Source: Camelus dromedarius (taxonomy: Eukaryota). From it: a stretch of 64,000 bases of DNA. The DNA is taken from positions 5,952,001 through 6,016,000 of the forward strand of contig NC_087436.1 in NCBI RefSeq assembly GCF_036321535.1, given 5' to 3'. Position 1 is the stretch's first letter; each line of letters opens with the position of its first letter. Position numbers and translations under genes: made by a program. Positions 11,631 through 60,459 of the stretch are shown in pieces. Below the pieces are notes generated by a model. It had not been told where the DNA came from. It saw only the letters and a program-made list of their open reading frames with translations, and did no database searches.

Positions 11631-12288
11631 TTTTTTTTTTGACTGACAGATCCTGCCTCAGGTTTATTTGTACAAACAGCGCAGGTGGACATGAGCCCCA
11701 TGCAGACAGCAGCCCAGGGGTCATACCAGTCCTTCTGTCCTCACATCAGTAGATGAAGGCCTCTACTCTGGAGCTTCTGTGGGGCCTGGGCACCTTTGGG
11801 AGCCTGAGCCTGCGCCGGAGCTGCAGCTGAAGCTGAGCTGTGGCCTTGGTCTGAGCCTTGGCCTCGGCCTTTGGCCGACAGAGCCTGAGCCCCTTGGTGA
11901 CATGCGCACAAGCACTTTTCCCGAACTTGGGGTGAGCAGGGCGGGCGAGTTGACTGAGCTCGCGGCTGCTGCCCTTGGGACCTTGGACTTGACCTCCTTG
12001 GGCTTCACGAGAGCCTTGACGGCCTCGGCATGTGCACCCGTGGCCTTGGTGTTGTTGGCCTGCATCCTCTTCAGGCCCTCCTTGTTGTGCTTCTTGGCAA
12101 AGCGCGCGTTCCTCGGGAACTCGGGGTCCACCCCCTCAAGAGATTTGTGTTGTTGTGATCGGGGGTTTTGGATGCCGTTTCTGTGCCATTTTTGGGACTG
12201 GTTGTGCGTGGTGTGGTTCTTTAACTTGGCCATGTCTGCACCGGAACTGGGAGATCCCGAATCGCCTGGGACCGGAAGGGAAAGAGCA
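11631..12288 (-). pseudogene. RPL29: Processed pseudogene of 60S ribosomal protein L29 (eL29)
   Basis: ATG at 12233 gives [42 protein letters not shown]; no introns; pyrimidine TOP-like 5' end; AATAAA (tttatt 11663-11668); poly(A); 16-bp TSD TCTCCTGGT[T/G]GACTTT at 11615-11630 and 12289-12304; frameshifts after codon 86. Confidence 0.97.
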
Positions 12289-14845
12289 TCTCCTGGTGGA
12301 CTTTGCACATCACCTGCAGCATCCTTCCTCCGGGAAGGGCTCCATGACTCTGCAGGTCAGGTGCTGTCTGCCTATCTTCTCACAGCACCTGTGTTTTTCT
12401 CATTTTGAATTTACCACTCAGTTGTAATTTTACACTTTTTTGTTGATGTCAATGTAGCCTTAGTGCTCAACTTTTCCACTAGAGTGGGAGTCACAAGGCT
12501 AGGAAATAGACCCTATTCACCATGGGTTCCCAGCGTCCAGCACATGGCCCAACACACAGTAAACAATCGATAAACTTTGGAGAGAAAATCATGAGTGAAT
12601 TGATTTTAAATAAATTTTTTTCACTGAGTTAAAATGTGTTTGGTTTATGAAGTCCCTGCTTCATTCAGTGTAATGATGCAGGCACAAACATCTTCATTGG
12701 TATTTAAGCCCAAATCACTCAATTTTCTGTATTTGGATTTATTATTATTCCTAAGTGGTAATTTCTCAGAAATATTAAATAATCTATCAAGACTAACAAA
12801 CTAAGCCAAAGTGCAAAGGGATTTCTGTTCTAACTAAAAACCTATCAAAGCATAATAAATAAAATACATTAAAATATAGCAGTAGACATACCGAGAGGTC
12901 TTAAATTTTACAAAATGTTATTTTTGCTAAGAGCTTAATTTAACATAGACTAATACTTAAATCATATAAAATCAGCTAATAATATTTAATACTAAAAATA
13001 TCTTGCTTTTCATAATTGAATTATATAGTCAATGCTTGACTAGCAGTCACTTATTCAAATTACCATACTAAAACATGCAAACTAATGTATCTTGATGACA
13101 AAATTTAGTGATGCTAGTCAGGATGTACCAACAAAAATTCCCTCCAAAGTATGGGGAGGTAATGAGACGGCTCACCTGAGTCATGGACAGCATGGAGTTG
13201 GGGGGGGTCGTCTCCGCTGATCAGAAGCAGCCCCTCACACAGTGTGGGGTTGGAGTTTAGACTGCTCTCACATTCTGGAAATTGAAAGCAGAAAAATAAC
13301 AAAATAAACTTCCTTACCATTAAAACCACTGCAGTGCTTGAATGAAAGGAAATAAAAACCACAATGCAAAAGAATATAATGTCACTCCAAGCCAAACACA
13401 ATTTGCACTAAAAAAAAAAAAAATCCATGGAGAAAAACTCACAGCTGAGAATTACAAAATTCACAAATTCTTGCCACCAAGGAGTGTCAATAGATGCAAT
13501 AAAGAGCAGATTAAGACCCTCAAGAAATTTCAGGAAATGGTGGACCATCTGGAAGAAGCCATACCATGGGACATCTAAAATCATTTCGAATCCTAAAAGG
13601 AGAAACACAGAATAAGAAAAAAAAATGTAAGAAAAGACAACTTAGAGAAAGAGCAAGAAGAGAATCACTGAAACTAAACAGTAAATTACAATAAAAAATG
13701 AATAAAATATAAAATCACAGATTGTCTAATTGCGCATGGCAGATACAGAATCCATGAACTCCAAGACAGAACTGAGTAAGTCCACCAGCTTCTATAACAC
13801 GAAATAAAAGGATGGGTATGAAAATGAGACTGAGAGACTTGGAAGACAAAATGAGAGGGGAGTTGTATTAATTAGGGCCGAAGAAGCAGAACCAATGTGA
13901 GGACTAGGCAACAAGAAGTTTATTACAACAGCTGCACCTTGCAAAACTGTAGGGGGAGCCAGGAAAGTAAAACAGAGTCAGATGACCAAAGAAAAGTCAT
14001 TACAAAGGGGCTTGGAGAGGAGCAGGTGAGGAAGTGGGTGGAAGGTGGTTGCCTGTGAGTCAACAGTGGGGCCTGAAATTGCTGTGTCCATAGGGCAGTA
14101 GTTGACCAGATAGCTGGACAGGAAGCAAGGGAAAGCAAGAACCAACAGTGACTGGACAGTAATAGGTTCAAGGGTAACCTAGAACCCATAGAGACAAACT
14201 GGGATCGGGATGAAAAACTGCAACCTGTGAAGACAAACTAAAACTTAGCTTTCTCTGACAGCATCTAACCTCAGTGACATGGGTGACATGCACAAGAAGC
14301 TAGTGGCTTCCACCAAGTGCTTGGCCCAGATGAGGAAGGAGATCTGGCAAAAGCGGGAGAATAAAGGGCCAGGATGCTGCCCACAGCCACAAGGTAAGCC
14401 TCCAGCTGCAGTCTTCCAGGAGTTGTGGGAGCCTGGCTCCAGGTTCCAGCCTGCTGCCTCACTTCTGCCTCCCAAATCTCACCTGAATTTACTTGCGATG
14501 GATGTGAGCCTGGACCCATAGAGAGAAGAGAAGTCTAGCAAAGACGGTCCCAGCTTAGCTACACTGACAAAGTATGAACTCATCCCAGTCATTTTCTTTA
14601 CAAATTTGGCATCCACACATCACACATTAGAACACACTTAATTTGCAAGCAGATCTACAGCTTTGCTTCCATCTGTGCAGCAATCCCTTCTGCAATAGAA
14701 AACAGCTAGATTTCACCCTAAAATAATACGAAGTCCCATGTCACTTTGTCCACCTTTAAATGATATTTATTCCTCTGCTAGCTGAGCCTCAGTCCCTCTT
14801 TGATACCCTCTAATGTAATGTTGATAAAGTTTATATGTATGTACA

Positions 14846-15990: not shown

Positions 15991-18014
15991 TATATTTACA
16001 CCCCAAGAGTCAAGCTGGATCAGTAGCCACTCAATTAGAAGAAAGTTTAGTTGTCTTACTTGATTTACATTAATATGATTTAAAGTTACATGCTGAATAT
16101 ACTTGGGAGAGAATTGAGACATTTTGGCCTAAGAAACAAAATATTTGTTATTGAATACCTACCAGAATTTGTTTGTTATCTTGACTCCAGCAATTCTCCT
16201 GCAGAGGAAAGACCGGGACCGTTCAGATCCAAGGATGTGAATGGTCCCTCATTTAAACAGATGCTGTGAAGTGCCACATGGCAGCGATGTAAAGCCAGTT
16301 CCAGGAAATGAGTGAAGACTGTAGGAAAGGATTTCTGGAGCATATAGTATGGGAATTTCTGAAAAGAACTGTAGCAGCTGTTGAAATAGAGAGCAAATCA
16401 TCAGTATTTTATGTGGAAATAATTCCGGGATGATTTTATTTCTAAAAACATTTCATTAAATTATGCTGTTTCCATGGTAAAGCCACGTAACTGGCTGAAA
16501 ATACACTTGAAAATCATGCCCCGTATTTTTCTAGTGCCAGTAGGAAATTATCAAGGGCTGATTCTTGGCTGTGCCTAAATGTCCTCGGCTTACTTAGGAA
16601 TCTCAGTGATGATGTTTGCTCCCGAGCAAGAGGACTGCACTGCAGACCCTGTACCAGACGGGGCAGGGCAGGCGGCACACAACAGGCACATTAAAAATGT
16701 TTCTTTATTTCCTCATTCTCTCTCACTCTTGATGCATGTATTATTCTATTTTCCCCTTAATAAACTCAACCTAACACTTCTCCAGATCATATATTTTAAT
16801 TATTATCTTCATAAGCACTGAGTGAGTTTTACTCAATTCAACCCACCATTTTCCTATCAACTATGATAAGCAAGACATTTTACTAATATCTGGGGCTGTA
16901 TAAGGACTAAAATGTGTATGTTCTCTTGGGCTCAAGGAATTTATAATTCACTGGGAGAGAATAATCTAACAGTTGAAAGAAACCCTCTATTTTAAAATCC
17001 AATAATATTTTGTTAGACACCAAATGGGAGAGGAAAGAAATATCCAATACTTACAATATAGTGATTTTACGATCTTAACCATCTTTCAGAGACCACATTT
17101 GTCTGTTATATTACAGCATAACGTGAGACAGACCAGACGGCTAGACGGTGGCAAGTGCTAGGACCACTTTTAAAACACACGCATGCTGGGGAGAAGAGAA
17201 AACTACACAGAGTCAGGAGCCTGTCGCGTATATAACGCTTCTGGTAACACCCTGATCTGTGGCGAGCCGGGTATCCCATCTCAGGAAAGAGACAAGCAGT
17301 TACACCTTGCTCCATACCGCCAGGTCTCCAGGTGTTACAACACTTGGTAGCGCCTTTGGGTTTCGGAGGCACATATACTAAGATGGAGAAAAATTTCGCC
17401 TATCTGTTTTCATGGGATTTGTAGGGCTGTCGATTTCAAGTGAGGCCAGGAAAAAGAGAGGGGTCTGCCGCTGGTCCCAGGCTGTAAAGAAAGCTTCCCA
17501 GCCACCCAAATCCGAGGACCCAGCAGACCTAATGACGTTAGATGCATCAATGGTGGAAAGGATGCTGTGTGGAGTCTCCGGAAATTACCAACAAGTGTTA
17601 TTACAGAACTGTAGGGTTCTGGATCAAGGCCAGACCTGTGACAGAAGACTGACTTGAAAATGTGCCTTGTCATGGAAGAATATATGGCTCTTTGATTGGA
17701 ACCATCCATCTTGGATCACCTATTGTCAGAGTCACTGAGTAATAGAGTTGAGCTGTGCTACACAATCCATGATACAATGGAAACAGTATGTTTGGGATCA
17801 CATCTGAGGTCCATAGAATACAAGTAAGGTTATAGGGTACAAGTGAGTTAGAGGACTGTGTGGCCAGATTCTCTCTTGCACTGAAGCATGTCCCTTATCT
17901 CACACTTACGATCTCATGGGAGAGTGGTCTCTACCACCATCTTACAGAAGAGGGAAAACCTCATTTGAAGGTATATTGCTTCAAGATGTGAATGTCAATT
18001 GAAAATGGATTGCT

Positions 18015-18464
18015 AAAGAATCAAACAGTGCCATTTACAACACCATGGTTGGACCTGGAGATTGTCGTACCAAGTAAAGTAAGTCAGACAGAGAAAGACA
18101 AATACCATATGATGTCACTTATATGCAGAATCTAAAAAAAGATACAAATTAACTTATTTACAAAGCAGAAATAGACTCACAGACATAGAAAACAAATTTA
18201 TGGTTACCAGCAGGGAAAGGGAGTGGGAAGGGATTAAACTGGGAGATTTTTAGGTACTAACTACTGTATATATAATAGATATTCAATAAGTTTCTTTTGT
18301 GTAGCACAGGGAACTATATTTGATACCTTGTAATAGCCTATAATGAAAAAGACTATAAAAGGGAATATACGTCTGTATATGTACAACTGAGACATGATGC
18401 TGTACACCAGAAATTGACACATTGTAAACTGACTAGAATTGAATTAAAAAAAAAAAAAAAGAAA
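18015..18464 (+). mobile_element. 5'-truncated L1 inserted into the ERVL
   Basis: L1 3' UTR plus poly(A); 14-bp TSD GAAAATGGATTGCT at 18001-18014 and 18465-18478. Confidence 0.95.
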
Positions 18465-19646
18465 GAAAATGGATTGCTGCTGCAAGAGAGCATTACTCAT
18501 GTGGGGTCGAAAAGGAAAGAAGTGAGGAGAGATCCTACCACCGGCAAAGTTGCAGGGAGCACATTTGATTGGTTAATTTGTTTGGAGAGAGGAGTCACTA
18601 GGATTTGCACAGGCATGGAATTCTAGACAATGATGGATGGCTTGGCTGCTTAATCAGAGATGAAAGAAATATAATTAAGAGATCAGAGACAACAAATTCT
18701 GGCAAAGGGTATGTGGAGGAATTTATGGAAGTAGCAATAAGTATGAAGACTGACGAGTCTTCTGTTAACAAACCAGAGAGCCTCCAACACAGGGGAAAGT
18801 CTACAACCAGGGAGGTGGGGTGACTTATCCTATGGTCATCAGTGCATCTCTGTCCTTAACAATCCCACTACATGGGAGAAAGGGCCACAAATAGAATGAC
18901 CAAGGTGTTGTGAGGTCAACCTCATGGCTCCCTCTCACCACAGTCAACTTAAGTACCACTGTTGGATGCCCGGCTTGCTAGCATCAGAGGCGAATGCAAG
19001 TGGACTGCACTGAGCCTCTTCTGCCCTGGAAGAGACAGTGATTCATCTCCGCAGGAGCTGACACTGACTGATGTAGATTTCTCTTTCCTGGCTGCAGGGT
19101 CAAGGCTGGTTCCAGCATCACAGAATCTTTGATCTCTGGACACGTTACTCATACACACTGTCTAGACCAAGGGGATCGCTTTATGGAAAAGCAGGAACTA
19201 CATGGGTCCCACATTGTACCATAAACTACATTACCTAGAAGGAGTCAGGCAGCTGTAACTGGATGAACTGCTTTCGTTTTCATTTGTTTGTCTGTTTTTT
19301 GGCCAGGGGAGCAGAAAGAATAAAAAAGGAATGATTATACTAGGAGGTAGGTAATCTGCTGACAGAGAAGAGGGCAGAGAAGGGTGCGTCTGGAATCCCG
19401 GGTCCACAAAGATGTTTTTGACACTCCCTCACCCATTATAATAGTAATTGGTCAATTGTATTCAATCTCAGCCCAGTAAGGGCAGGATGATTACTGCTTC
19501 AAAGCCTTTGTCTCGAGGCACAGTTCCATCAGTCAGGCAAACATCAGCACCGATGACCTGATGCCCAAATGTGAGGAAAATATAGAATGAGTGGTAAAAG
19601 AAGAGGGAAATTAGAAGAGGGAATTTAATTTAAAATAATGGTAATA

Positions 19647-20460
19647 GTGGGGAGGGTAGAGCTCAGTGGCAGAGTGCATGCATAGCATACATGAGGTCCT
19701 GGGTTCAATCCCCAGTACCTCTGTTTAAAAAAAAAAGACAATTAAAATAAACAAATGCTGCATCCAGTGCAGCTCAGGACCGTGTCTGAGGACAGGTGAC
19801 ACAAGACTTAAGAAACAAAGAGACAAAGTAAGGAGCAAAGATGGGACCAGGGGGCTCAAGATCTCGTGGATCCGGAGTCCCGAAAGCCTAGTCGACATCA
19901 CATTTATTAGGAGTACACGGCTCAGAAAAAAATGCAATCGAAGTGGTGGGGCTTTAGACATTCCATGTGATAAGCACTAAGTTCTGCTTGCTGGTTAACT
20001 GATTAATTTGAAGCCTATCCCTTGCAGGAACAATCACCCTCCTCAGGGGATGCAAAATTTCCAAGTCTATCCTGTTACTGCCTTCGGGACATCTCGAGAT
20101 AGCAAATGTTTCCCCTGGGCTTAACCGAGTGCTTTCCTGCGAGAACCAAGTTCTGTTAATGGATGATCTGGCTTTCCAGGACCATCCACTGTTTCACCCT
20201 AAGGAAATATCTGCCCTGCTTTGTGCTCTTATGGTCAATCTCAGGATTGCCCCTCACAAATTTTCTTTAGCATAATACATGCTATAGGTCATCTACTGCA
20301 TAAAACATCAAAACAAAGCAAGCATGTGCATTTCAAGCAAGCACGAATATCATATTTTAAGCTCATGGAAATTTAGATGCGGCTTGTTTTCCAGCAGCTT
20401 GTTTCCCAGCAAATAAATAAATTTGATTACCTCCTACCACTAAAAAAAAGAAAAAAATTA
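19647..20460 (+). mobile_element. Vic-1-type SINE with its tail split by an LTR
   Basis: tRNA-like head about 19649-19722; tail resumes at 20412; TSD AAAATAATG[G/A]TAATA at 19632-19646 and 20461-20475. Confidence 0.9.
19756..20411 (-). mobile_element. Young solo LTR, ERV2/betaretrovirus-like (6-bp TSD)
   Basis: TGCTG...CAGCA inverted termini; flanks AACAAA/AATAAA; highly similar to 45846-46527; AATAAA on the minus strand. Confidence 0.85.
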
Positions 20461-20880
20461 AAAATAATGATAATAAATTAATTAACACTATCAATATTAT
20501 AAATTAAGATATTATAATTCACATATAAATTATAAATACTATACATTATACATAGTATGTAAAATATGAATACTACATATTTAATATATAATGCATTATA
20601 CAATAATTTATTATACTTGTATATTAATGTAATTATGATATAATAACATTAATATTATTTTATTTATGAAATAAATAATTTAAATAATCATATAATATAA
20701 TTGCAATATTATAGTTATATGAGTTGTGTATAATAACGCATTTTATAATTAATATTTATTATAAAATAATTTCATATACTATACATTATGCATAATACAT
20801 AGTATATAACTACTATGTATTGTATGTAGAGTACGTTATATCATAATATTTTAATATTACAGTATAATAGATGACAATAA
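20461..20880. repeat. Extremely AT-rich low-complexity tract
   Basis: About 420 bp of degenerate TAA/TA/ATT repeats with very few G/C. Confidence 0.9.
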
Positions 20881-20884
20881 ACAG

Positions 20885-21660
20885 GAGCGGGAATACTAGG
20901 TGTGACCCTGGACAAGCAGGAGTCGCGGGGACAAGCGCTCCACCCGCTGGCCTCCCGCATCAGCATCCCTGCGAGCGCGTCACTCGCGCACGTGAGGAGT
21001 GGGCCCCAGAGAAGCGGGGCTGACCCCGAACGTCCCTTCCACGCTGACCCCGAGCTCTGACCCCCCCCGCGGGAGTGGGCGGCTCTGACCTCACTCTCCT
21101 GGTGACCACAGTGAAGTGCGCACCGTGTGTGAGCATCGGGCTCTCCAATGGGGAGGACGGGACCCTGGGAAAGGCAGCTGGATCCACGTGCAAGCGCCAC
21201 GCGCGTGTGCAGCGCTGATGTCCTAAGGGCCAGACCTCAAGGAACGGCGAACAGAGCGAGCGGATCAATTAATCCTCCCCTGGACCCTCCGGCGGCCAGC
21301 TCGGCGCAGGGTCCTGGCGCATCCGTGCGGGAAGCCCGCGGGGGTCCGCGGCTCAGCGCCGCACCCTCGCTCCGGAGCCCCTCTTTGTCTCCCTCGCCTC
21401 AGCCCTGCTCTTGCTTCCTAAGTTCGCTTCCTTCACAAACGACGTGCGCACGAGCCCGTGTCCCAGGCTCTGCTTTCTGGAGGTTCCCGCGCCACCGCGC
21501 AAGGGGCTTCACTTTTCTGGGCTTGGTTGTGCAGGTCGGATTTAGACAGCAGCGGTAACACCCGTGGCCTCTGACCGTCACAGCGAGCAAACGCGCTGCC
21601 AGTCGCAAACGCCTTAGTGTAGTGCCTGCCTGGCACATGACCGCATAATCAGCATTCTGC
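20885..21660. promoter_or_regulatory. CpG island
   Basis: About 780 bp of GC-rich, CpG-dense sequence in an AT-rich window; E-boxes CACGTG at 20989 and 21185; CTCF-like motif at 20934-20952 (minus); no linked coding exon recognised. Confidence 0.8.
21005..21500 (+). mobile_element. LTR16/LTR33-type ERVL 3' LTR, strongly GC-shifted
   Basis: Follows a PPT-like gaggagtgggc; ends tgcttcc..cacaaacgacgtgcgcacgagcccgtgtcccaggctctgctttctggaggttccc, colinear with the remembered aataaactacttgcacacaagtccttgtctcaggctctgctttctggggaaccc. Confidence 0.65.
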
Positions 21661-22788
21661 ATGTGGTTAATGACAAGAGCGGTGAGGATAAAGGTTTAAA
21701 AGGTTACGCAGGATGGCCTCATATATGTGCATATTATAATATATAAAATAAATAAGAAATAAAAGTTTCCAGATCAATAACACACTTCTGGATAGCCTTC
21801 TAAACAGCTTGTAGCCTTACACAAGGAAAATACTCTCAAGAACTAACGAATTAACCTTTCTCAATATGCCATTTCTTCAAATATTCCATAAAAGTGCTCT
21901 TCTAAGGCCTCGTTTTCCTCAAAGATGCATCTAAAATGAAATACATTATTTTTATTATGAAGGAAAATATTTTCACGCTTAATTGTATAAATAGGCAAAT
22001 TATATTTTGTCTTACTTTTAGACAAAAGGAAAGTTTAAAAAGCGTTCGATGTCTGCATGTAAGAAATTGGTTGACAACGGGAGTGAAATCAAGGTAACAG
22101 CAACAACAAAATCTCCTAGAACCTTCTTCCTCAGTATTTTGAATGCTTGAAAGTATTGTTAAAATAAATTTCTTCCATTTTTAATCTTCTTGCTGCCATA
22201 AATATTATTATCTGCCACGGAGGCAGCCTTCCCGGTCAGCTGTCACCCGGAGATGTGAGTTGCCCCTCTATGTATGCATTATAGCATATGGAAAAAATCT
22301 AAGGTTGAACTATAGCACAAAGCGGAATGATGCTTCAGAGATTTTATCAATACGTGGATTTGGTAAGCAGTGTTAAAGGGTTCATTGAAGTAGAAAAAAA
22401 TAATCACTTGAGAATCATTCTTGCTGCTTAATTGCCCTCTGGGTAAAACACTGCCCCTCCCCAATCGTATTTTTGGACAGTGAAGTGTTATTCTCCACCA
22501 CATAGCCATTTTTCAGAGAATGACTTTGAACACATCTGCTGTGGCTCCATTATTCAACCATCATGCCAGTCTACTGTTCTGCAGAGAAGGAAAAAGAATG
22601 TATAATAAATGAGAAGTTTATTATTTTACAGCATTTGACAACTTCACACTTTTTTTTAAAAAAACAGCTGCAAAGAAGTTTTGTTTTGAAGAAATGACAG
22701 TTTTCTCCTATGGAGTTAACATTTCTTAGTGAGTCAAAAGTGATCATGTCTGAAGGTAACTATAAGCCCTACAGCTAGAAACCATTCC

Positions 22789-34676: not shown

Positions 34677-37600
34677 TTACATGAATTGTTATTGAGTGTT
34701 GGAAAATAATATTTTCTATTAGTTTCCACTAGCCACTTGGGAATAATTAAAACAATTGTTTGTCTTTCAAATATATTAAAGAATTCTATCATAATGTTAA
34801 AAAAATAAGAAGTTATCAAAAACCCTTTAAACAGAACTTGACACTTAACGTAACGCCAAGTGTTTGTAAGTGTCAGATACCATGGTAAGTATTTTCCATA
34901 TTGTCTCGTTTACATATTATAATAATTCTATGACATAAGTACCATAGAATAGAATGAAAACGGAGACGCAGAGAGCTCCATGTACCTGTCCCACAGCGAG
35001 CTGCTGATCTGGGATCTTAATTCCAGTTTGTCAGCATCCAGCAGCTCGGCTCTGACCATTGTGGGGGCTGGTGTTACCTGTTCAAGTATCTGCTTTTCCT
35101 CTGACAGGGTCCCTTCCAACCTCACCGACTCCAGGCTTGGTCATACGACTGAGTTCAGCAAAGGGGTGTTGGGGATTGACATGTGTAGTTTCCAAAAGGG
35201 AGATTTACAAGCCATCACATAGTTCCCCAACTTCCTGTTTCCCCCTTTCCCTGAGCCTCACAGGGTCCCCAGGGGGGCTGCTCCTACAGTGTGGGGTCTC
35301 AGGGGATGCTGACACGGGGCAGGTCTCCAGACAGCGATGCCCAGACAGCTGTGCTCACTGTCACGTGTCATTGAGCTCTCTGGGTTATTTTGTGCAGTAG
35401 CGCAATTCAGCCTAGCTTGACAGACACCCACACGACTCCACCTGTGCCTCTGTTTGCTTCTTCCTCCTGCTAAGTAGAGACATTTATTTGTAATGTAAAT
35501 TTTTTCTTTGCTGCCAATAAGCTAGAACAAATCAAAATTTCCATCCTTGCACAGTATTCTGAATACCTCATAAAGCCCTTTGGTAAGCTCTGTAACTGTA
35601 CAGCATAATTAAACAATGAGGGCAGGAGAATTATAAGATGCCCACCCTGCTAGGAGACAGTACACAGAGCATCTCACATACAAATAGAGATACTTTTTAG
35701 AGATTTATTTTCCATCATCCACCGTTAATCGCGCCTCCCTTGCTGGCTGGACCAACTAAACGTTGTCCGCGAGCCCATTTTAGGACAGATTCTGTTGACA
35801 GGCGCAGCTCCGCTCTGAAGACTGCTTCACCCTCAGTGCTATGATGTTGCCCCGCCTCTCACCCTCCTTCCTTTAAAACGGTACTTACACCCACTGCCGC
35901 CCGCCGGGATGCTTTGGCCGAAGAGCAAAGACTAAAGCGTGATTCATCTAGTTTTTAGTCTCCTGGACTTTTTTCAGTGGGCCAGTAGGATCACAGGAAT
36001 TAGGGATGAAAATGATCAGTTGCTTTTGCATTCAGTATATTTTTGTAACCACAGTCAGCAGCTCCTTAACAATGTGGATGAATAAAAAAGGAGAGGTGAG
36101 TCCAAACCCTCTGTTATGGGTAATCAACAACCCACAGACCTAAGTGGGGGGCGTGAGCTGTATTTGGAAGGAGTGCCTGATAGACGTCACTATCACCTGA
36201 TTTTAAGTTCTGTCTCTTTTGGCTCAGCTTGTGTTTGTTGATTTTGTTTTAGTTAAAATTAAAAACAAAACCAAGGTAAACAACTATGAATTTCTCATTT
36301 GCAGCCATCTATGTGCATGGGAAGTGACTTACTGATGCTCTAATTGAACAGTCATTGCTCGGTCTTCATCAGACGTGCCCTGGTATCTTCCACGGTCAGC
36401 CCCTGACATGGCGCCAGGCTGTGAGCAGCTTTGTAGACAAGGGTACTGCTTCTTTGCTGAGAGCATCCATGTACCACACGCCTGTACACAGACTGAATGG
36501 ACACTTCAGGCATCCATGTAAATGGATTTTCAGTGTTTACTATAGCCTCTTCTTTGAGGTTTATTTAGTAAATTATGGTACAAGGCAAAGTTCAGATATA
36601 TTTCAGAATCAAGATTTGGTTTGATCTTATAAGCTTATAATATGCCAAAAAAAAAAAACCAAAGACTGTAACTGGACTAATGAAAACACATTATACCTAG
36701 TAAAAATAGGAAGATAAAGCTCTAGTAATTTTTAAAACAATGAGGCAAAAGACCACACAGGACAACATCAGTGAATTCTACTCTCATCAGGGCCTCACTC
36801 ATCCGCAGATCTCCCTGAGAGCCTGGGGAGCTCCACGTGGCAGAATCACAATGATGGCATAGGATGTGGGTCCCGAGAGAGGACTCACCCTGGAGAAGGA
36901 AACAGAAGGAGTTTGGTCCAAAGAACTGGGTTTCACAACAGGGCTTTGGCAGAAGGGAGGAAAGGCATGCATATAAGAGGGGCTGATATCCGAATAATGA
37001 CCGTGCTCGCCAATAGCTGCTCCCACGTGGAAGATGCCTACTTCCAGTCACACCCCATTTCAAGTTCTGAGAAGCAATTTTCTTCCTTATTTCATATAAA
37101 ATGGCTCTTCTAGTGTCAGGACCGAGCTCCCACACAGCCATGAGGGTGGGCAGCACACAACGAACAGGCCAACTTTGCAGAAGGTGGTACATTTCAGAGC
37201 AGTATGTTTATTCAAGTGGGGTCATTTCCCTCCGTTATCTGCTTATCAAAATCCTTTCTATCCACGGAAGATAATATTGGAAATTAAAAAAAAAACAAAT
37301 AGATGAATAAAACTTTAAGTAATACTTTAATTTGAAAACATGGATCTCAATTTCCAAAGGTAGTTAATGAGAATATTTGAGTGGAAAAAAAAAATTGTCA
37401 ATAGTGACCGCAAAGCATGAATGTAGCCATTATCCTGTATTTGTAAAGAGAGGTTAAAAATATCTCCTTACCCACTTATAGTAAAATTTCAGCAAAAACT
37501 ATATTTAATACTGTATCTATTCATTGCAAAGTTGTTTCTGATTTGGTCTGCTTTCCAAAAGGAAAAGAGATTTACTGTAATTTACAGAGATATCTTTGAG

Positions 37601-39849: not shown

Positions 39850-40060
39850 TATTAACTACTAGATATAAAATAGATAAATATCAAGGTCCTACTGGACAGC
39901 ACAGGGAACTATATTCAGTATCTTGTAATGTCCTATAATGAAAAAGAATCTGAAAAGGAATATATACATATAACTGAATCACCGTGCTGTACACCAGAAA
40001 CTGACACTGAACATTGTAAATCAACTATATTTTATTTTTTCAATTAAAAAAAAAAAGAAA
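39850..40060 (+). mobile_element. L1 3' UTR fragment
   Basis: cagcacagggaactatattcagtatcttg...poly(A). Confidence 0.88.
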
Positions 40061-40255
40061 ACAGGAAGGTATAATCCTTCTGGAAGTGGTGGTTACCATT
40101 GTGACCCACATAAAACCAATCGCATTTGGGGAAAAACAAAAATTCATGGTCGACATATTATTAAAAAGCTTAATTGAAAATGTTAGATTAAAAGATGTAA
40201 GTAGACGTTTCCATACTTATACTCAAATCTCCACGGATCACCTCCAGCTCCGCAT

Positions 40256-40258
<3 letters not shown>

Positions 40259-40301
<43 letters not shown>

Positions 40302-40314
40302 CGCGCGCGCGCGC
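40259..40314. repeat. Compound (GT)17(GC)11 microsatellite
   Basis: Counted directly. Confidence 0.95.
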
Positions 40315-40706
40315 AAGCCACTCCGAGAACTCGGATCCACATTTCCCCATAAGGCTAAATAAATATGCTGCGTGTGACTTCTTCTTCCTCGGAGCAAGCC
40401 GTTCTATCTTTGGAGACAACTCCAGCCATTTTCAATATGGGCCCCAGGTAACACCATGCAATTTGAAAATCAGTATTTTACTTCAGGCCACAGACTCAGG
40501 CAATGAGCTCTTGTCTTATCTTCCCCAATTCAGCGATATTTGAGTCATACATTATCTTTGGTAGATATTTTAAACATACAACATGACTTTATTTCTTTTA
40601 TTTCTTTTTTGCACTCATTTTATCTCTCTTCTTTTCCTTTTTTTTTCCCCCTTGCTTCTTTGTTGGGCAGAAGAGAAAGTCATGTTTATTAAAGTTTCAG
40701 TTTTCT

Positions 40707-41129: not shown

Positions 41130-41850
41130 TTTTAAAATTTGTTTACTCCATTCCATTAAGGAAATCTTTATGCACAATTAGATGTATGCATTTTAAGCGT
41201 AGAGATGGACGGGTTTTGACCCTGGAAACACTACAATCCGGATACTGCCCACCTTCCATGTGCCCTTCAGCGGTCAAGCCCCCACCCCGCCAGTCTGGCC
41301 CCAGGTAAGCGTGACCTTCCCGTTACTGTTGGTTAGTTTTACGTGTTGAAGAATTTCGCGTAAACGAAATCACACACTATATCCTGCTGTGTGTCAGCCT
41401 CCTGCGTCGCAGCACATTTTTGGGATTCGTGCACATTGTTGTGTGCATCAGCAGTTTACCTCGTTTCACTAAAGAGCTGCGTTCCATTACACGAAGTACC
41501 GTTTGTTTATCCATTCGTGATGGATGGATATTTGGCTTGTTTCCATTTGGGGGCTAATAGGAATAAAAGTTACTCTATTCACCTGTTGGTGTCCAACTCT
41601 GGGCTGGAACATAACGTGCAAACGTGTGCTGTCATTTAACGTGTGTAAATACCTAGGAGTGGAATGGCTGGACTTTCCCACAGGGGTTGTATGTAACCTG
41701 CACCTGCCATCACCAGCACGTGGGAGCTGTGCCTGCGCCCTGGCCTCCCCAGCACGTGGTGTGCAGTCTTCTCAACACCCACATGTATCTCATAGGGCTG
41801 TGCTTTATGTTATCTAATAAATAACGCTGTTAAGCGCCAGCTGTGTACAC
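41130..41850 (-). mobile_element. Ancient L1M (MB/ME-type) 3' fragment, unusually CpG-rich
   Basis: tttgtttatccattc..gatggatatttggcttgtttccatttgggg..gtaaatacctaggagtggaatggctgg. Confidence 0.8.
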
Positions 41851-45162: not shown

Positions 45163-45845
45163 AGGAGGAGGACAGGCTTGGTCCCTCTGTGTCTGTGAAT
45201 GATCAGCCACTGCAGAGACCACTGAGTGACTCTGATTTCCACCCTGTTCACTGCACAGAGCCAAGCCCCTCTAGACACAGGTTTGGTGTCTACACAAATT
45301 CAGCCTGTTGTATACACAGGAAAAGGGATAGTTACTACCCAGAAACTGGCAGAATAAAAATTGCATATTTACATCGTCTTCCCCTAACTATAACTCCGGC
45401 TAATCCTGGGCAAAAAGTTCTAAAAATACAGAGATTTTTCAGACCCACTCAGCTCCACTCGTTAAGGCTTCTCAGAGTCTATTTCACATATCTCTAATGG
45501 AAAGATTCAATAGTAGGTATTTTACAGTACTTTAAAAAACTGTTTTGTGTCCCTTTCAAAATGAGTCAATCAAAGAGTGAAAAGTGTCGGGGAAAGTAAG
45601 TCTGCTCTCCATGCTGTGACACCTGTATATGGTACCTGTGTTAGTCTATTGTCAGCAGCCCAGGGCAACCTCCCTTTTTTGTGTATATGGCTCATATGTT
45701 CTGTCTTCTGTGTCCTCTGCACTGTTTCTGTTTTCTGACCCACTTTCTGCTAGTGGGAAAAGTTCCTCAAATTTAACTTTTGGGACAGGAAGGCTAATTT
45801 TTAGATTGGATTGGAGATGAAGGTACTTCCTAAATTGCCCTGAAG

Positions 45846-46527
45846 TGCTGCTTCGAGTGCAGCTCGGGACTGTGCCTGAGGACGGGCGACGGAAGACTTA
45901 AGAAACAAAGAGACAAAGTAAAGAACAAAGATGGGACCAGGGGGCTCAAGATCTTATGGATCTAGAGCTCTGAAAGCCTGGTCGACACCACATTTATTAG
46001 GAGTACACGGCTCAGAAAAAAATGTGATCAAAGAGATGGGGCTTTAGATATTCCGTGCGATAAGCACTAAGTTCTGCTTGCTGGTTAACTGATGAATTTC
46101 AGGCCTATCCCTTGCAGGAACAATCACCCTCCTCGGGGGATGCAAAATTTCTAAGTCTATCCTGTTACTGCCTCCGGGACATCTCGAGATAGCAAATGTT
46201 TCCCCTGGGTTTAACCTCTTGCTTTCATGCCAGAACCAAGTTCTGTTAATGGATGATCTGGCTTTCCAGGTCCGTCCACTGTTTCACCCTAAGGAAATAT
46301 CTGCCCTGCTTTGTGCTCTTATGGTCAATCTCAGGATTTCTCCTAACAAATTTTCTTTAGCATAGTATGTACATAATGCTATAGGTCATCTATTATGTAG
46401 AACATTAAAACAAAGCAAGCATGTGCATTTTAAGCAAGTAAGTGTGAATATAATATTTTAAGCTCCTGGAAATTTAGGTGCAGCTTGTTTTCTAGTTGCT
46501 TGTTTTCCGGCGGCTTGTTTCCCAGCA
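45846..46527 (-). mobile_element. Young solo LTR, ERV2/betaretrovirus-like
   Basis: TGCTG...CAGCA termini; perfect 6-bp TSD CTGAAG at 45840-45845 and 46528-46533. Confidence 0.92.
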
Positions 46528-48689
46528 CTGAAGTTGTGACCATCAGGATATTTTAAAAGTACTATTTTTAAGCATGCTCCTGGGCTGGCATTGTTAGTTT
46601 TAACTGCATAATTGGTTTTCACTTGCTGTCTAAAAGACTACTGTGGTCTGTTGGCATAATCTAAGAGAGTACTCGATTGGTCAAGGGGAAAAGGCTAACA
46701 AAATGCTCTCGCTGTGTAGATCTAAGTACTGTGTTTGGAAACTTGTTTTGGATAATTCATTCTGATTCCGTTATTAATAAAGATCATGTCTGTAGCAAGG
46801 GAGTTGAGTTCAACTGGTAATACTACAGTGCTAAATAGAACCTGTTTATCTTTTGTTTGCATTGTGCCTTCCAAATGGACATGTTTGCCTATTTTACATA
46901 TTTCAGCATTTTAGTACTCCAAAGTAGAACATTACCAAAAAAAAAAAAAAAAAAAAATCTAGAGCACAGAATTGGGCAACTGTGTTTGACAGTGAAGATC
47001 TAATCCTGCTGCTCTGGGAGATACTGATTTCTCTGCTAAATGTGGAGAGAGCAGACAGACGGCCTCTTCTGTTGTTTCTCCTTCCACAGCACAGCCACGG
47101 AGCCAAACATGGTGGTGGCAGCTGAATACTAAAGCGTGTTCATTCTTCTGATGAAAACTGAAGCACTAGCAAATATATAATGTTGTCTGACTTAGTCAAT
47201 TTCAAGTTAATTAACATATTATTATTCCAGCTGAAACCTATTTGTTTTCAAAGATAAGAGTTAAAGCATCCTTTATAAATATTTTTACTAAAATTGGAAA
47301 TAAAGTGGTTTCTATTTCTACACACAAACCTGAGATTGTAAGGCTTAAATTTGATTTTTGGTTTACAGAATTTAAGGAACAGACACCAAGAAAATATTTT
47401 AGTCTAATGGATACTGCCGAATTTCCAAATTTACCCAGATTGTCTAAAAATATATCAATTTTTCAGATGAAGAATAAAATTACCTTTGGAGATCTCATTA
47501 TGGGAATCTAGAGAGACTTACTTCACCATGAAGAGTTTATTATTCAGTTGTTATTTTAGACTGACTCTTAGCAAGAAGAAAGAGAAATAGAATAATACAG
47601 TATACAAAAATCCATTTTTAGCATCATTTGGTAAATAAAATATTGGAAAGTTACTTTCTTCTTAAAACAAATATCTACAGGTGGCATTAAAATACATCTC
47701 ATAAGATTTTATATAACAGAATACGAACGTCTTTTCATTATCCTGGTGTGGTGAAACCCATGGAATAATTTAATCTGCTATTCTATATTTATAAGGATAT
47801 TTGCCATTGGTTCCAAATTATTAAGATCAGAAATTCACACAGCGCCCAAAAGCCAGGCAAACATCTGGGCAGTGCAGTGTTTGTTTGACACAATTCTTCT
47901 TATAAAACACAGTGAATGGTTTCAATGATTTTTTTGTTTACTTGAGTTAACCAGTGTTTTCTCTTTGGGTTTCCGATAGAAGAGCCACTGTAGTCAAAAA
48001 ACCGGAAGTCATCCAGTAGCGATGTCTAGCGAATTTATGCCTTTGTGAGTCAGTAAGTGTCCCGCTAGAGTGAAGCACTGGGCACCACCCGGAACCGCCT
48101 TGTTCCCCCTGCCATGAGCCCTGATTCTCCTTCCCATCTCGTAGAGCCTGGTGTTTGGATAGGATGGGGCTTTTTCCATGTCTGCTTCTGGACAGCCCAC
48201 GGTTCACCCTGGATTCATGAATTACCAACCTGCATTATTCTAGCTTTTCAGGGAGGTGATTTGAAGTCATGTCATTTATTTATTTGTTTCCTATTTCTTT
48301 GTGTCTTGCTTTGTTCAAAAAAAAAAGGTTATAAAGAGATTTGTAATGATGTATACAATACATACATATATAAAGATGTGTATAAAGATACCTACAACAC
48401 AAGATAAAATCTATTAAGACAAGGGAATGGTGGGAAAAAAGAGACCACGGGAGGTCAAAGCAGGAAAGCAATATGCAGCCCGGAGTTTAGCAGGGAAAAG
48501 TCATTCCTGAAAATCACTCAATTCAGTAGAGGTGAGTCACAGTGATGGAGCTAAGTTTATTTAATAAGCACTGTAGAAAAGGCACAGGGTAAATTACAGA
48601 ATTCCCAGTTTTCTAGGCTCAAACAAACGAGCGGAGCAGCTGTGGCCAACTTCGACCTCCCAGGAGAAAGTCACCCCGTCCGTGTGCTC

Positions 48690-48920
48690 GGGAAGCCGGC
48701 GGTCTGCGTTCAGATTCTGCCGCATCACTCACCCACAGTGGGACTCTGGACACATTGCTTTGCCTGTCTGAGCCTCTGATTCTTTATCTATCAAGCAGAA
48801 GTAATAAGAGCAATGATGCCATCATCGGGCTGCTCTTAGGCGTAAAGGAGCTGAGCGAAGACAAGTGCTTTGTGCAGGTCTTATATGTAGCGCGTCTTCC
48901 GTGCACAATGAATGGGGTGA
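48690..48920 (+). mobile_element. MIR SINE
   Basis: gttcagattctgcc..cactcac..tctgagcctctgattctttatctat..gtaataagagc. Confidence 0.65.
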
Positions 48921-51054
48921 CTTGTTCTGTGTAACAACTTCCAAACCCACAAACATGGGACTATCCTTCCCAAAAGCCTTCACTAATATCTCTAATTTAC
49001 ATTTAAATTGATCTTAAGATCGTAAAGCAACAGCAATGGACCAAGAGTTAAGAAACCTAGAGTTAAGAACCCTGTTTCTTCTAGCATCTGATTGACAATG
49101 GCTTATTCACTGAATAATCAGAGCTGTCGATACGGTTTCCTCCCGTCCAAAGACTGACCGGACAATCTCAGGATTTGTGCCAGCTCTAGTGTTTTCCTGT
49201 TGAGGCAGAGGGTTTTTTGTTGTTGTTGTTATTGTTGTTTATTTGCTTTTGTTTTTTGCTGCTGCTGCTCTTTTTGTTGTTAAAAATAGATACTTTTAAC
49301 AGGGAGAATATTGATCAGAATCAATCAAAATTTATCAAGATAGGAAGCATGAAGTTTATTCAAGATATAATCACGTTAATAGGGAACTTGTTTAATGTTT
49401 ATCTCAGGAGCAAATGACTGGAAATGGAGAAAAGAAAGACAATCAGAACAGAAGCACAACTGAAGACATTGGCCTCATGTCAACCAACCAGGCATCATCT
49501 CAACAATAACAGTTATCTTCCTATTTAGGAGAAACTCAGAAATAAAGAATTCTTTTAAGATTCGAGACATTTTTAATTTATGATTTTCAGGGCAAAGTCA
49601 ATCCAGCAAAATAATGTAACTCAAAAACGAAAAACTTCCTCTCATGAAGTTGTAAAGGCAGAGATTATTCTAGCCCTTAGAATGGCTTAGATAGAGCTTT
49701 TTAAAAAATATAAGCTTAGGGCTTTTTAAACACAGTTGACAAGGGGGTACCAAAGCATATGTTTCTGATGTTATTTAAGTTTCGAGGTTTGTTGTGACAG
49801 TTGGTAAAAGAAGAAAATATTCATTAACATCTAATCAAACATGCATCCACAAGGGAGGCCTTGAATTTTTATGTAGTCACTAAATACTTCTTTGCATCAG
49901 CATTTACATGATGTGTTCCAGTATTATGAAACCTGTGTGTGGCTGGCATCAAACTGTGCTTTCAATAGACTTGGCCACACCATCTCAAATGATCTCTTTT
50001 TTTTCTCAGGACCTCTTTGCAAGGATGTGGTCAGTATCCTGTCCCATCATGCAGCCTGAAGGCAGCCTTTCCCTGTGCCCTCCAGGGGGTCTTCTGTGGA
50101 ACTGGGAGCCATAGGTCTGCCATGGGACTGTCGTGTGCGGGAGGTGCATGGACCACGATGCACATGACAAAGACTCAGGGAAAAAGGAAGGGGGACCGAG
50201 TCAGCAAGGACCCACCGACTGACCCTGACTGTACCCAGAGCAGATGCAGCAGACCACCTTCCATAGACTTAGCGACAAAGGAATACAGGGAGCTCGGTGA
50301 TGAGGCAGAACAAGGGCTTCCACCTCCTCAGAAGCGGGTGGAAGGACCCCTCCCTCCACGGCAATGAGGATGCAGCGTGCCACCCAGCTTCAGACGGCAT
50401 CCCAGGAAGCACCGGAGGAGGGAAACAACTGGGGAGGAAGCTGGACTTTAATTGACTGAACATCTGTCTCAAGAGAGATCACGTAACTTGGAAAAAATCC
50501 AAAACATGTTTTTAGGGAAAAGTTAGCTTTTCCTCTACAACTTGATACTAAAAGACAGTCGCCCCTCAGCTAAATTGTCCTCCACATCCAACATAGTAAA
50601 GTGTTCCCTTCCAATCCACCACATGGCATTTTCTTGCCATATCTAGGAAACGTACACCATGAAATAGGAGTTAAGTGCTTAACAAATGCTTCAGTCCAAC
50701 TCATGCCCAATTTCGAAGCATAGAAAGGCATTAATTATCTGGAGTCCTAGGCAAAAAAAATAAATAAATAAAAATAAAAATACTGTTTTTTAAAAATTTT
50801 CTGTGAATTTATTCCTTGCATCAGTTAGACTTTTAGACAAACATCCTAATAGCCTTCTCCATAAGCTGCCTTCCGGTATTCTCCTTTCTTGCCATTGGCC
50901 AGTGGTTCTCAACTGGGGATGACTTTTGGCTTCTTCATTTTGAGAGGCTGGAGGAGGTCTTTTTAAATCTAGAAAATCTAGTGGTCTTCCACTTAGCACG
51001 TGAGTTGGTGCCTCCCGTGAGATGGCGGTTAAATGCTGTAACTACCAAGACTTC

Positions 51055-59100: not shown

Positions 59101-60459
59101 AAATAGGTATCGATTATTCCAAAGCTGACAAAAAAGACTGAAAACCTGCAGCTTCCTTTGTTATTACCTCTTTCACATCTTGTATTAACATTTGGTGATA
59201 ATTAACATGCTCGTGTGCCAGGCATGGGAATAAACACTTCCCAAGTACAAAGATTTAATGAAGCTGGTGTGGAATTTTATTACTTGGGAGGATACCAGAT
59301 GCTTTCCCCAAAAAATGCTTTTAGATTGTAGAAATCCTCAGAACATCACTGAAATGTAGGCAAACGGGGTGTTTTCATCCATATTTTAGAAGTGAAGGGA
59401 CTGATGTGCAGTGAGTTTCAATAATTAAGCAAAGTCACCCAGCTACTAAGGATTTGATTTGGAAATGGAATACTATCATTCTATCTGCTAATTATTCTAA
59501 ATCACACACCTTCGACTTTTTTTTTTTTTTTTGAATTGGATAAAGGTAGATTTTTGAGTGATTTTCAAATTTGGGAATTGATGTTCTATCTGTCCTTGTA
59601 ATTTAGAGAAAGCAGCTTCCATAGTCAACTCATCACTGCTTAACTTTGCATGAAATGTGGTTCTTGTAAACAACTAGTCCATTTGCTACCCACACTTGGA
59701 GGAAACACGACTTCCCATGGGCCGTGTTTGTCATGGGTGGATAATGATCCTAGATCCACCATCTACCAAGTTATAGCTCAAGGAAGCTCTCCAAAGCGCA
59801 CGTTAACGAGGGATGTTTTACCCCCTCCCAGGAGCAAGTTCCATGTGAATTCCTGCTTTCTGACTCATCTGCCAAGTCCAGCACAGTGCATTATGCCCCA
59901 AAGGCATCAGAGGACTCAACCAACCCATCAAATTCCTGCCATAAATTTAGCTTAAACCATGAGGATGTCTCTCCTGGGAAGGATGTGTCACACCCCTCAG
60001 GCAATGCCCTGGACATGTTCAATATTTTTCTCCTTGTATGAGTGCTTTCTATTTAAGACCAAGTGAAATACACTTCTGAACTAGATCTTTTCTTTATCAT
60101 TGTGAATTTGCTGCTAATAATATGCAGAGGGGATTTAGTTGTGCATGCATGTATGTGAGAAATGGGGTTGGAGATCAGAGAAAGAGAGAGCCGGGAGGGA
60201 GAGAGAGGGGAGAGAGACTAAGGGACTATTAAAAATATATATACATATATCTGTTATCCAGATTGTGGAGTGATTTCTCTGCCAATTAAGAATGTTTTCA
60301 GACTGTTCTTTCCTTCTGAAACATTTTGGGGGCTCTAAAAGTAGTTGACTTTGGAAAAGAATATCTATGTTGGCTATTAAACGTATAATTTTATGGATAG
60401 CTACATTTCCAGTCCAGGGAGTTTTTATGGACTCTATAATTGCAGGAAAATTTTCCTAT

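Follow-up and report, generated by a model that had tools for sequence, protein, structure and literature searches.

Can recombination make a promoter island from dead repeats? The locus described here bears on that question. The birth of CpG islands through GC-biased gene conversion (gBGC) is on record as a genome-wide statistic and single loci have seldom been traced; this locus may offer a starting sequence, drawn from repeat families already described, as well as a functional read-out in the form of a spliced RNA. We analyzed a 64-kb stretch of dromedary DNA (hereafter, the window), which contains six tRNA-derived SINE heads, pieces of L1 and an RPL29 copy in addition to the island. The RPL29 copy (Pfam PF01779), a processed one at 11763–12356 on the minus strand, still reads open over 197 codons. 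Feature coordinates are collected in Table 1.

An isolated CpG island

The island at 20885–21660 is 776 nt long, with GC 0.653, 70 CpG and a CpG o/e of 0.85, and by the usual sequence-level criteria (at least 500 nt, GC of at least 55% and CpG o/e of at least 0.65) it is a CpG island. The whole window has GC 0.396 and a CpG o/e of 0.30, and its richest other 776-nt stretch holds 29 CpG, so that the dense island reported by the first-pass annotation is not only real but isolated. Its left edge is abrupt, against an AT-rich tract, and its right edge fades across 21500–21720. A repeat check ruled out a tandem repeat, and R-loop-type GC skew was rejected as a feature of the island, the skew being only 0.04. 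The AT-rich tract carries a weak internal palindrome at 20762–20853.

A CpG scan of the window found four further raised stretches, one of them a CG microsatellite. Another, the patch that lies on an old piece of L1, shows strong:weak counts of 16:5 against its L1 paralogue at 426–522, or 28:18 in a longer alignment; these, like the strong:weak counts given below, are unpolarised comparisons between paralogues within the window. From the three smaller CpG-rich patches and the skew of the one at 41.2 kb, the window may contain a number of small tracts with a GC bias, the island being the strongest among them. CpG is also mildly high at 17001–17500, the start of the ERVL-like region discussed below (16 CpG, o/e 0.61), at a level under the patch threshold.

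Table 1. Features of the island locus and of other CpG-raised stretches in the window
Feature	Position	Strand	Details
Decayed ERVL-like pol region	17180–19620	+	Interrupted by an L1 end, with many frameshifts and stops; lies within the intron; CpG o/e 0.27
Younger interspersed repeat	19753–20410	.	88.5% paralogue at 45843–46511
AT-rich low-complexity tract	20441–20884	.	444 nt, 13.5% GC; abuts the island
CpG island, wider limits	20885–21720	.	836 nt, GC 0.64, 72 CpG, o/e 0.85
MIR-like stub	20890–20917	+	Left of the insert, on the island's left edge
Candidate left target-site duplication	20918–20922	+	4/5 letters match 21502–21506
LTR-like insert	20923–21501	+	579 nt, GC 0.68, 59 CpG; ends CA, left end not TG
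Candidate right target-site duplication	21502–21506	+	Partner of 20918–20922
MIR-like remnant	21507–21693	+	GC 0.54, CpG o/e 0.81; contains the 5' part of the exon
Exon of spliced RNA, probably first	21090–21693	-	At least 604 nt; covered by the X15 contig and in part by X19 and X17
Intron	16378–21089	-	4,712 nt, GT..AG, pyrimidine tract, branch-like motif
Start of next exon	16350–16377	-	First 28 nt; about 215 nt in all if it ends at the nearest donor-like site
CpG-raised patch	35651–36000		o/e about 0.7
CG microsatellite	40051–40600		CpG scan
CpG-raised patch over old L1 piece	41151–41650		o/e 0.84, GC 0.46
CpG-raised patch	48601–48900		o/e about 0.7; on a MIR-like remnant

An LTR-like insert flanked by MIR-like sequence

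The central part of the island, 20923–21501, resembles an LTR of the LTR16/LTR33 type, and the sequence on both sides of it is MIR-like. The two flanks together align collinearly with 48737–48922 at a score of 114, reached in 1 of 300 shuffles; the right flank alone scores 81 (38 of 300). Measured against a whole-window null, this alignment does not stand out as a sign of MIR continuity across the insert. The right remnant also aligns over 73 columns with 59150–59450 on the minus strand (0/300 shuffles), a target picked post hoc. An LTR-like insert with MIR-like sequence on both sides argues, if weakly, for a solo LTR lying within a MIR, and not for the 3' LTR of the element upstream. We read the arrangement as probably an old ERVL-class solo LTR inserted into a MIR, a layout that is putative, like its labels.

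The insert ends in CA at 21500–21501 and its best-fitting left end reads TC; the match between the candidate target-site duplications is weak, as five places within 80 nt match equally well. The 34 letters that the first-pass annotation had quoted were located at 21434–21467, where a by-eye count against the reference string it proposed, a putative one, gives 9 differences in 34, all weak-to-strong; five of these create CpG and four are transversions.

No second copy of the island or of the LTR was found in the 64-kb window by blastn, nhmmer or bias-tolerant alignment. Searches of Pfam, PDB and Rfam, together with protein and representative searches, found no relative in support of the LTR16/LTR33, MIR and ERVL labels, and Rfam, plasmids and phages gave no match to the island. 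Motif scans of collections gave 4 viral and 94 metagenome loci, none of the 98 homologous beyond the motif itself, and a scan of the genome collection gave nine loci, all bacterial and none homologous. Blank results are to be expected from collections of microbial and viral sequence such as those scanned.

The translations of 17.2–19.6 kb resemble a decayed ERVL pol. No reverse transcriptase, RNase H or integrase match was found for this region in Pfam, PDB or protein searches, and its two protein hits are spurious, to bacterial cadherin repeats. It had been proposed that the island begins exactly where this ERVL should end, which is doubtful, since about 1.2 kb, made up of a tRNA-derived SINE, the repeat at 19753–20410 and the 444-nt AT tract, lies between the two. 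We likewise rejected the island LTR as the 3' LTR of the 17.2-kb element: the 64 kb hold no matching 5' LTR, the absence of which truncation could also explain, and there is no direct continuity. The intervening repeat and its paralogue at 45843–46511, about 670 nt long, look LTR-like by eye.

A spliced RNA antisense to the supposed LTR

From 24 sequencing runs listed, four (X13, X15, X17 and X19) were compared with the window, as assembled contigs, which reveal neither transcript start nor expression level. In X15, an RNA run on reproductive-tract material, a 632-nt contig lies on 21090–21693 at a depth of 12.9; the other four X15 contigs in the window have depths of 2.4–3. The 28-letter loose end of this contig is a unique exact match to 16350–16377, so that the contig joins 21090 to 16377 and leaves out 4,712 nt that, read on the minus strand, have the ends GT..AG. 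On the acceptor side there is a branch-like motif as well as a pyrimidine tract. The junction was found in one contig, from one of the four runs compared. The contig begins 28 + 2 shared letters from the branch, which matches a fork in the assembly graph at the presumed assembly word length.

Other runs also cover the island. RNA run X19, from a different study, has its sole contig inside the exon, at 21220–21575, and run X17, whose RNA status is guessed, covers 21549–21718 and 22042–22537; X13, the only non-RNA run among the four, has no contig over the island. All contigs covering the island are at least 99% alike. The second X17 contig is 496 nt long at a depth of 11.6 and lacks splice-like ends; it could represent a divergent transcript or DNA. 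A perfect TATA-like motif lies on the plus strand at 21740.

The GT..AG junction, the pyrimidine tract and the branch-like motif together indicate that the island contributes an exon to a spliced RNA, probably its first exon; given the acceptor-like site near 21658, this exon could instead be internal. That the island is unique sequence, or that the join reflects a deletion allele, a retrocopy or a chimera made in assembly, we regard as very improbable. The blank database and in-window searches, the single junction contig and the lack of cover in the non-RNA run would all fit such a reading, but the collections are of a kind in which a blank says little, random collinear joins have canonical ends in only 0.95% of cases (200,000 trials), and the acceptor carries both of the motifs expected of an intron.

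The longest ATG-initiated ORF in the exon has 87 codons. The island ORFs belong to no Pfam family, and protein searches with them, including the plus-strand one, gave no relatives, so the RNA is most likely non-coding. Pfam searches of 76 minus-strand ORFs from 1–16.5 kb, where a host gene left of 16.5 kb would lie, gave only the RPL29 copy, a search that short exons may escape, and those of 85 longer ORFs gave only a piece of L1 reverse transcriptase.

Exapted solo LTRs can serve as lncRNA promoters, and the first-pass annotation had suggested either this or a recombination hotspot for the island, with an unannotated transcript in the former case. The transcript is supported by the minus-strand junction contig, and the LTR promoter is not: the RNA runs antisense to the supposed LTR (in its presumed orientation), and its cover reaches 21693–21718, past the LTR end at about 21501. 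With the 5' cover lying some 200 nt or more outside the LTR, and in the opposite sense, the promoter is not LTR-driven; the LTR contributes exon body and splice donor. The locus thus shares with LTR-derived lncRNA promoters a solo-LTR-like element within a spliced reproductive-tract RNA, and differs from them in its antisense orientation, in 5' cover outside the LTR and in the use of the LTR as exon body and donor. The loss of the sense-strand poly(A) signal is irrelevant to the spliced RNA, because that RNA is transcribed from the minus strand.

The direction of base change

The shift in composition was said to run on beyond the LTR into a MIR-like remnant, and it does: past the supposed LTR end, 21507–21693 still has GC 0.54 and a CpG o/e of 0.81, against a GC of 0.38 in the MIR-like copy at 59150–59450. 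The gain in GC thus covers two elements, the LTR-like insert and the MIR-like remnant. No such gain is seen in the 13.5%-GC tract next to the island, and a gBGC reading requires this tract to be younger or driven by slippage.

A background equilibrium GC of 0.40 was obtained from ten L1 ends (0.39 without CpG columns). Holding the insert at GC 0.68 needs a local equilibrium of at least 0.70 for starting values of 0.50–0.65, with starts and branch lengths assumed. Given a background near 0.4, lack of methylation alone would let the sequence drift towards that value and would not hold it at 0.68.

Over its whole length, the repeat at 19753–20410 differs from its 45843 paralogue at strong:weak 36:28, which is not significant. 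The 310 nt nearest the island give 17:6 outside CpG (p 0.035, with a cut chosen post hoc) and the far part 7:9, a near versus far difference with p 0.094. The right MIR-like remnant compared with 59150–59450 gives 10:3, again against a target chosen post hoc, and the right part together with the left stub gives 25:17 against a second MIR-like copy that is itself CpG-raised. No clear directional bias stands out in the SINE and L1 copies at distances of 1.1–2.9 kb. As a whole, these sequence comparisons lean towards GC-biased fixation at the island, and a gBGC origin is likely, or at least plausible, if weakly supported.

The same evidence bears on the reading in which the island is old and conserved, a GC- and CpG-rich LTR that left germ-line methylation early and has long been transcribed, with little lineage-specific drive. 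Consensus sequences of old LTR16-type elements are fairly CpG-rich, a spliced RNA is compatible with an unmethylated promoter, the left edge of the island tracks an element border with no smooth gradient, and the whole-repeat paralogue test was not significant. We nevertheless consider this reading unlikely, as escape from methylation cannot keep GC at 0.68 where the non-CpG equilibrium is 0.39, nor does it account for the GC of the MIR-like part relative to its copy, or for the four transversions among the nine differences from the proposed reference string.

Another reading, to which we give a similarly low standing, sees in the locus a methylated ‘gBGC island’ that a strong hotspot, perhaps directed by PRDM9, produced in the past; the RNA would then be incidental, transcribed in the germ line or by read-through and spliced at cryptic sites. 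Methylated ‘biased gene conversion islands’ are a described class (class iii in PMC8286816), the window holds three smaller CpG-rich patches, one of them with the 16:5 (28:18) skew against its L1 paralogue, and a CpG transition segregates at position 21553 of the island (a C/T difference, with T in three of the runs compared). Moreover, TpG and CpA o/e in the island are 1.1–1.2; this excess, however, is about what the CpG deficit alone predicts. An o/e of 0.85 across 800 nt would be hard to retain under full methylation after the death of a hotspot, and the spliced contig is unbroken at the donor, with RNA signal on the island in two studies.

Discussion

We favor, by a little over an even chance, a promoter-type CpG island that formed on dead repeat DNA, is unmethylated in the germ line and has been enriched in GC by gBGC. 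Following insertion of an old ERVL-class solo LTR into a MIR, transcription would begin at 21.7 kb or immediately to its right and proceed leftward, first across the MIR remnant and then, in antisense, across the LTR; splicing, seen in one contig, joins a donor within the LTR to an exon at a distance of 4.7 kb. In the germ line the locus would probably be unmethylated, which would have stopped CpG decay; it may then have served as a recombination site, at which gBGC would fix A/T-to-G/C changes across the element borders and bring the sequence to 64–68% GC.

In PMC4350167, gBGC is held to be the likely source of numerous new non-genic CpG islands in dogs, with unmethylated DNA attracting recombination, and 39 of 52 mammals are reported to show recombination enrichment at promoter-like default hotspots, judged from GC-biased substitution (10.1101/2023.11.17.567540). 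In dogs and most placentals, unmethylated promoter-like DNA draws recombination (PMC4350167; 10.1101/2023.11.17.567540), and a hotspot and an unmethylated promoter, which had been posed as a choice, are not alternatives. Orphan CpG islands overlap phastBias gBGC tracts (PMC11170920), and the mechanism is described in PMC4350167, PMC11170920 and 10.1101/2023.11.17.567540.

Read in this way, the island belongs to a known class, represented by dog GC peaks and by orphan islands on gBGC tracts. Like the dog GC peaks (PMC4350167), the island is short, isolated, CpG-rich and away from coding genes, and an interplay of low methylation and gBGC has been proposed for them; dogs, on the other hand, are without PRDM9, and dog-specific islands have a mean length of a few hundred nt, against about 800 nt here. 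Orphan islands are regarded as enhancers in PMC11170920, whereas the one described here contributes an exon to a spliced RNA. PRDM9-independent hotspots lie in unmethylated promoter-like DNA (10.1101/2023.11.17.567540; PMC11161765). With the biased gene conversion islands of PMC8286816, the locus would share CpG richness through GC drive, but those islands are methylated and fast-decaying and this one is transcribed.

Camelid terms are absent from the main text of 10.1101/2023.11.17.567540 and from four supplement files of PMC11161765, and a term search of PMC12994199 finds camels solely in the reference list. Our literature search, which covered sources other than subscription journals, returned nothing on camelid GC peaks or on this locus. 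What is new here is a spliced RNA antisense to a supposed LTR, with the island as one of its exons.

Should the island turn out to be present in outgroups as well, it would be an lncRNA promoter of the ordinary kind. A more far-reaching version of the favored account, which we hold to be less probable still than the conserved or the methylated island, is that germ-line transcription over a dead LTR and MIR preserved the unmethylated state of the locus and turned it into a stable, PRDM9-independent hotspot, where gBGC wrote a lineage-specific promoter island that reinforces the transcription. Under such an account, the window's three lesser CpG patches would represent earlier stages of the same process, and dog-like GC peaks would occur in a second lineage of mammals, the camelids.
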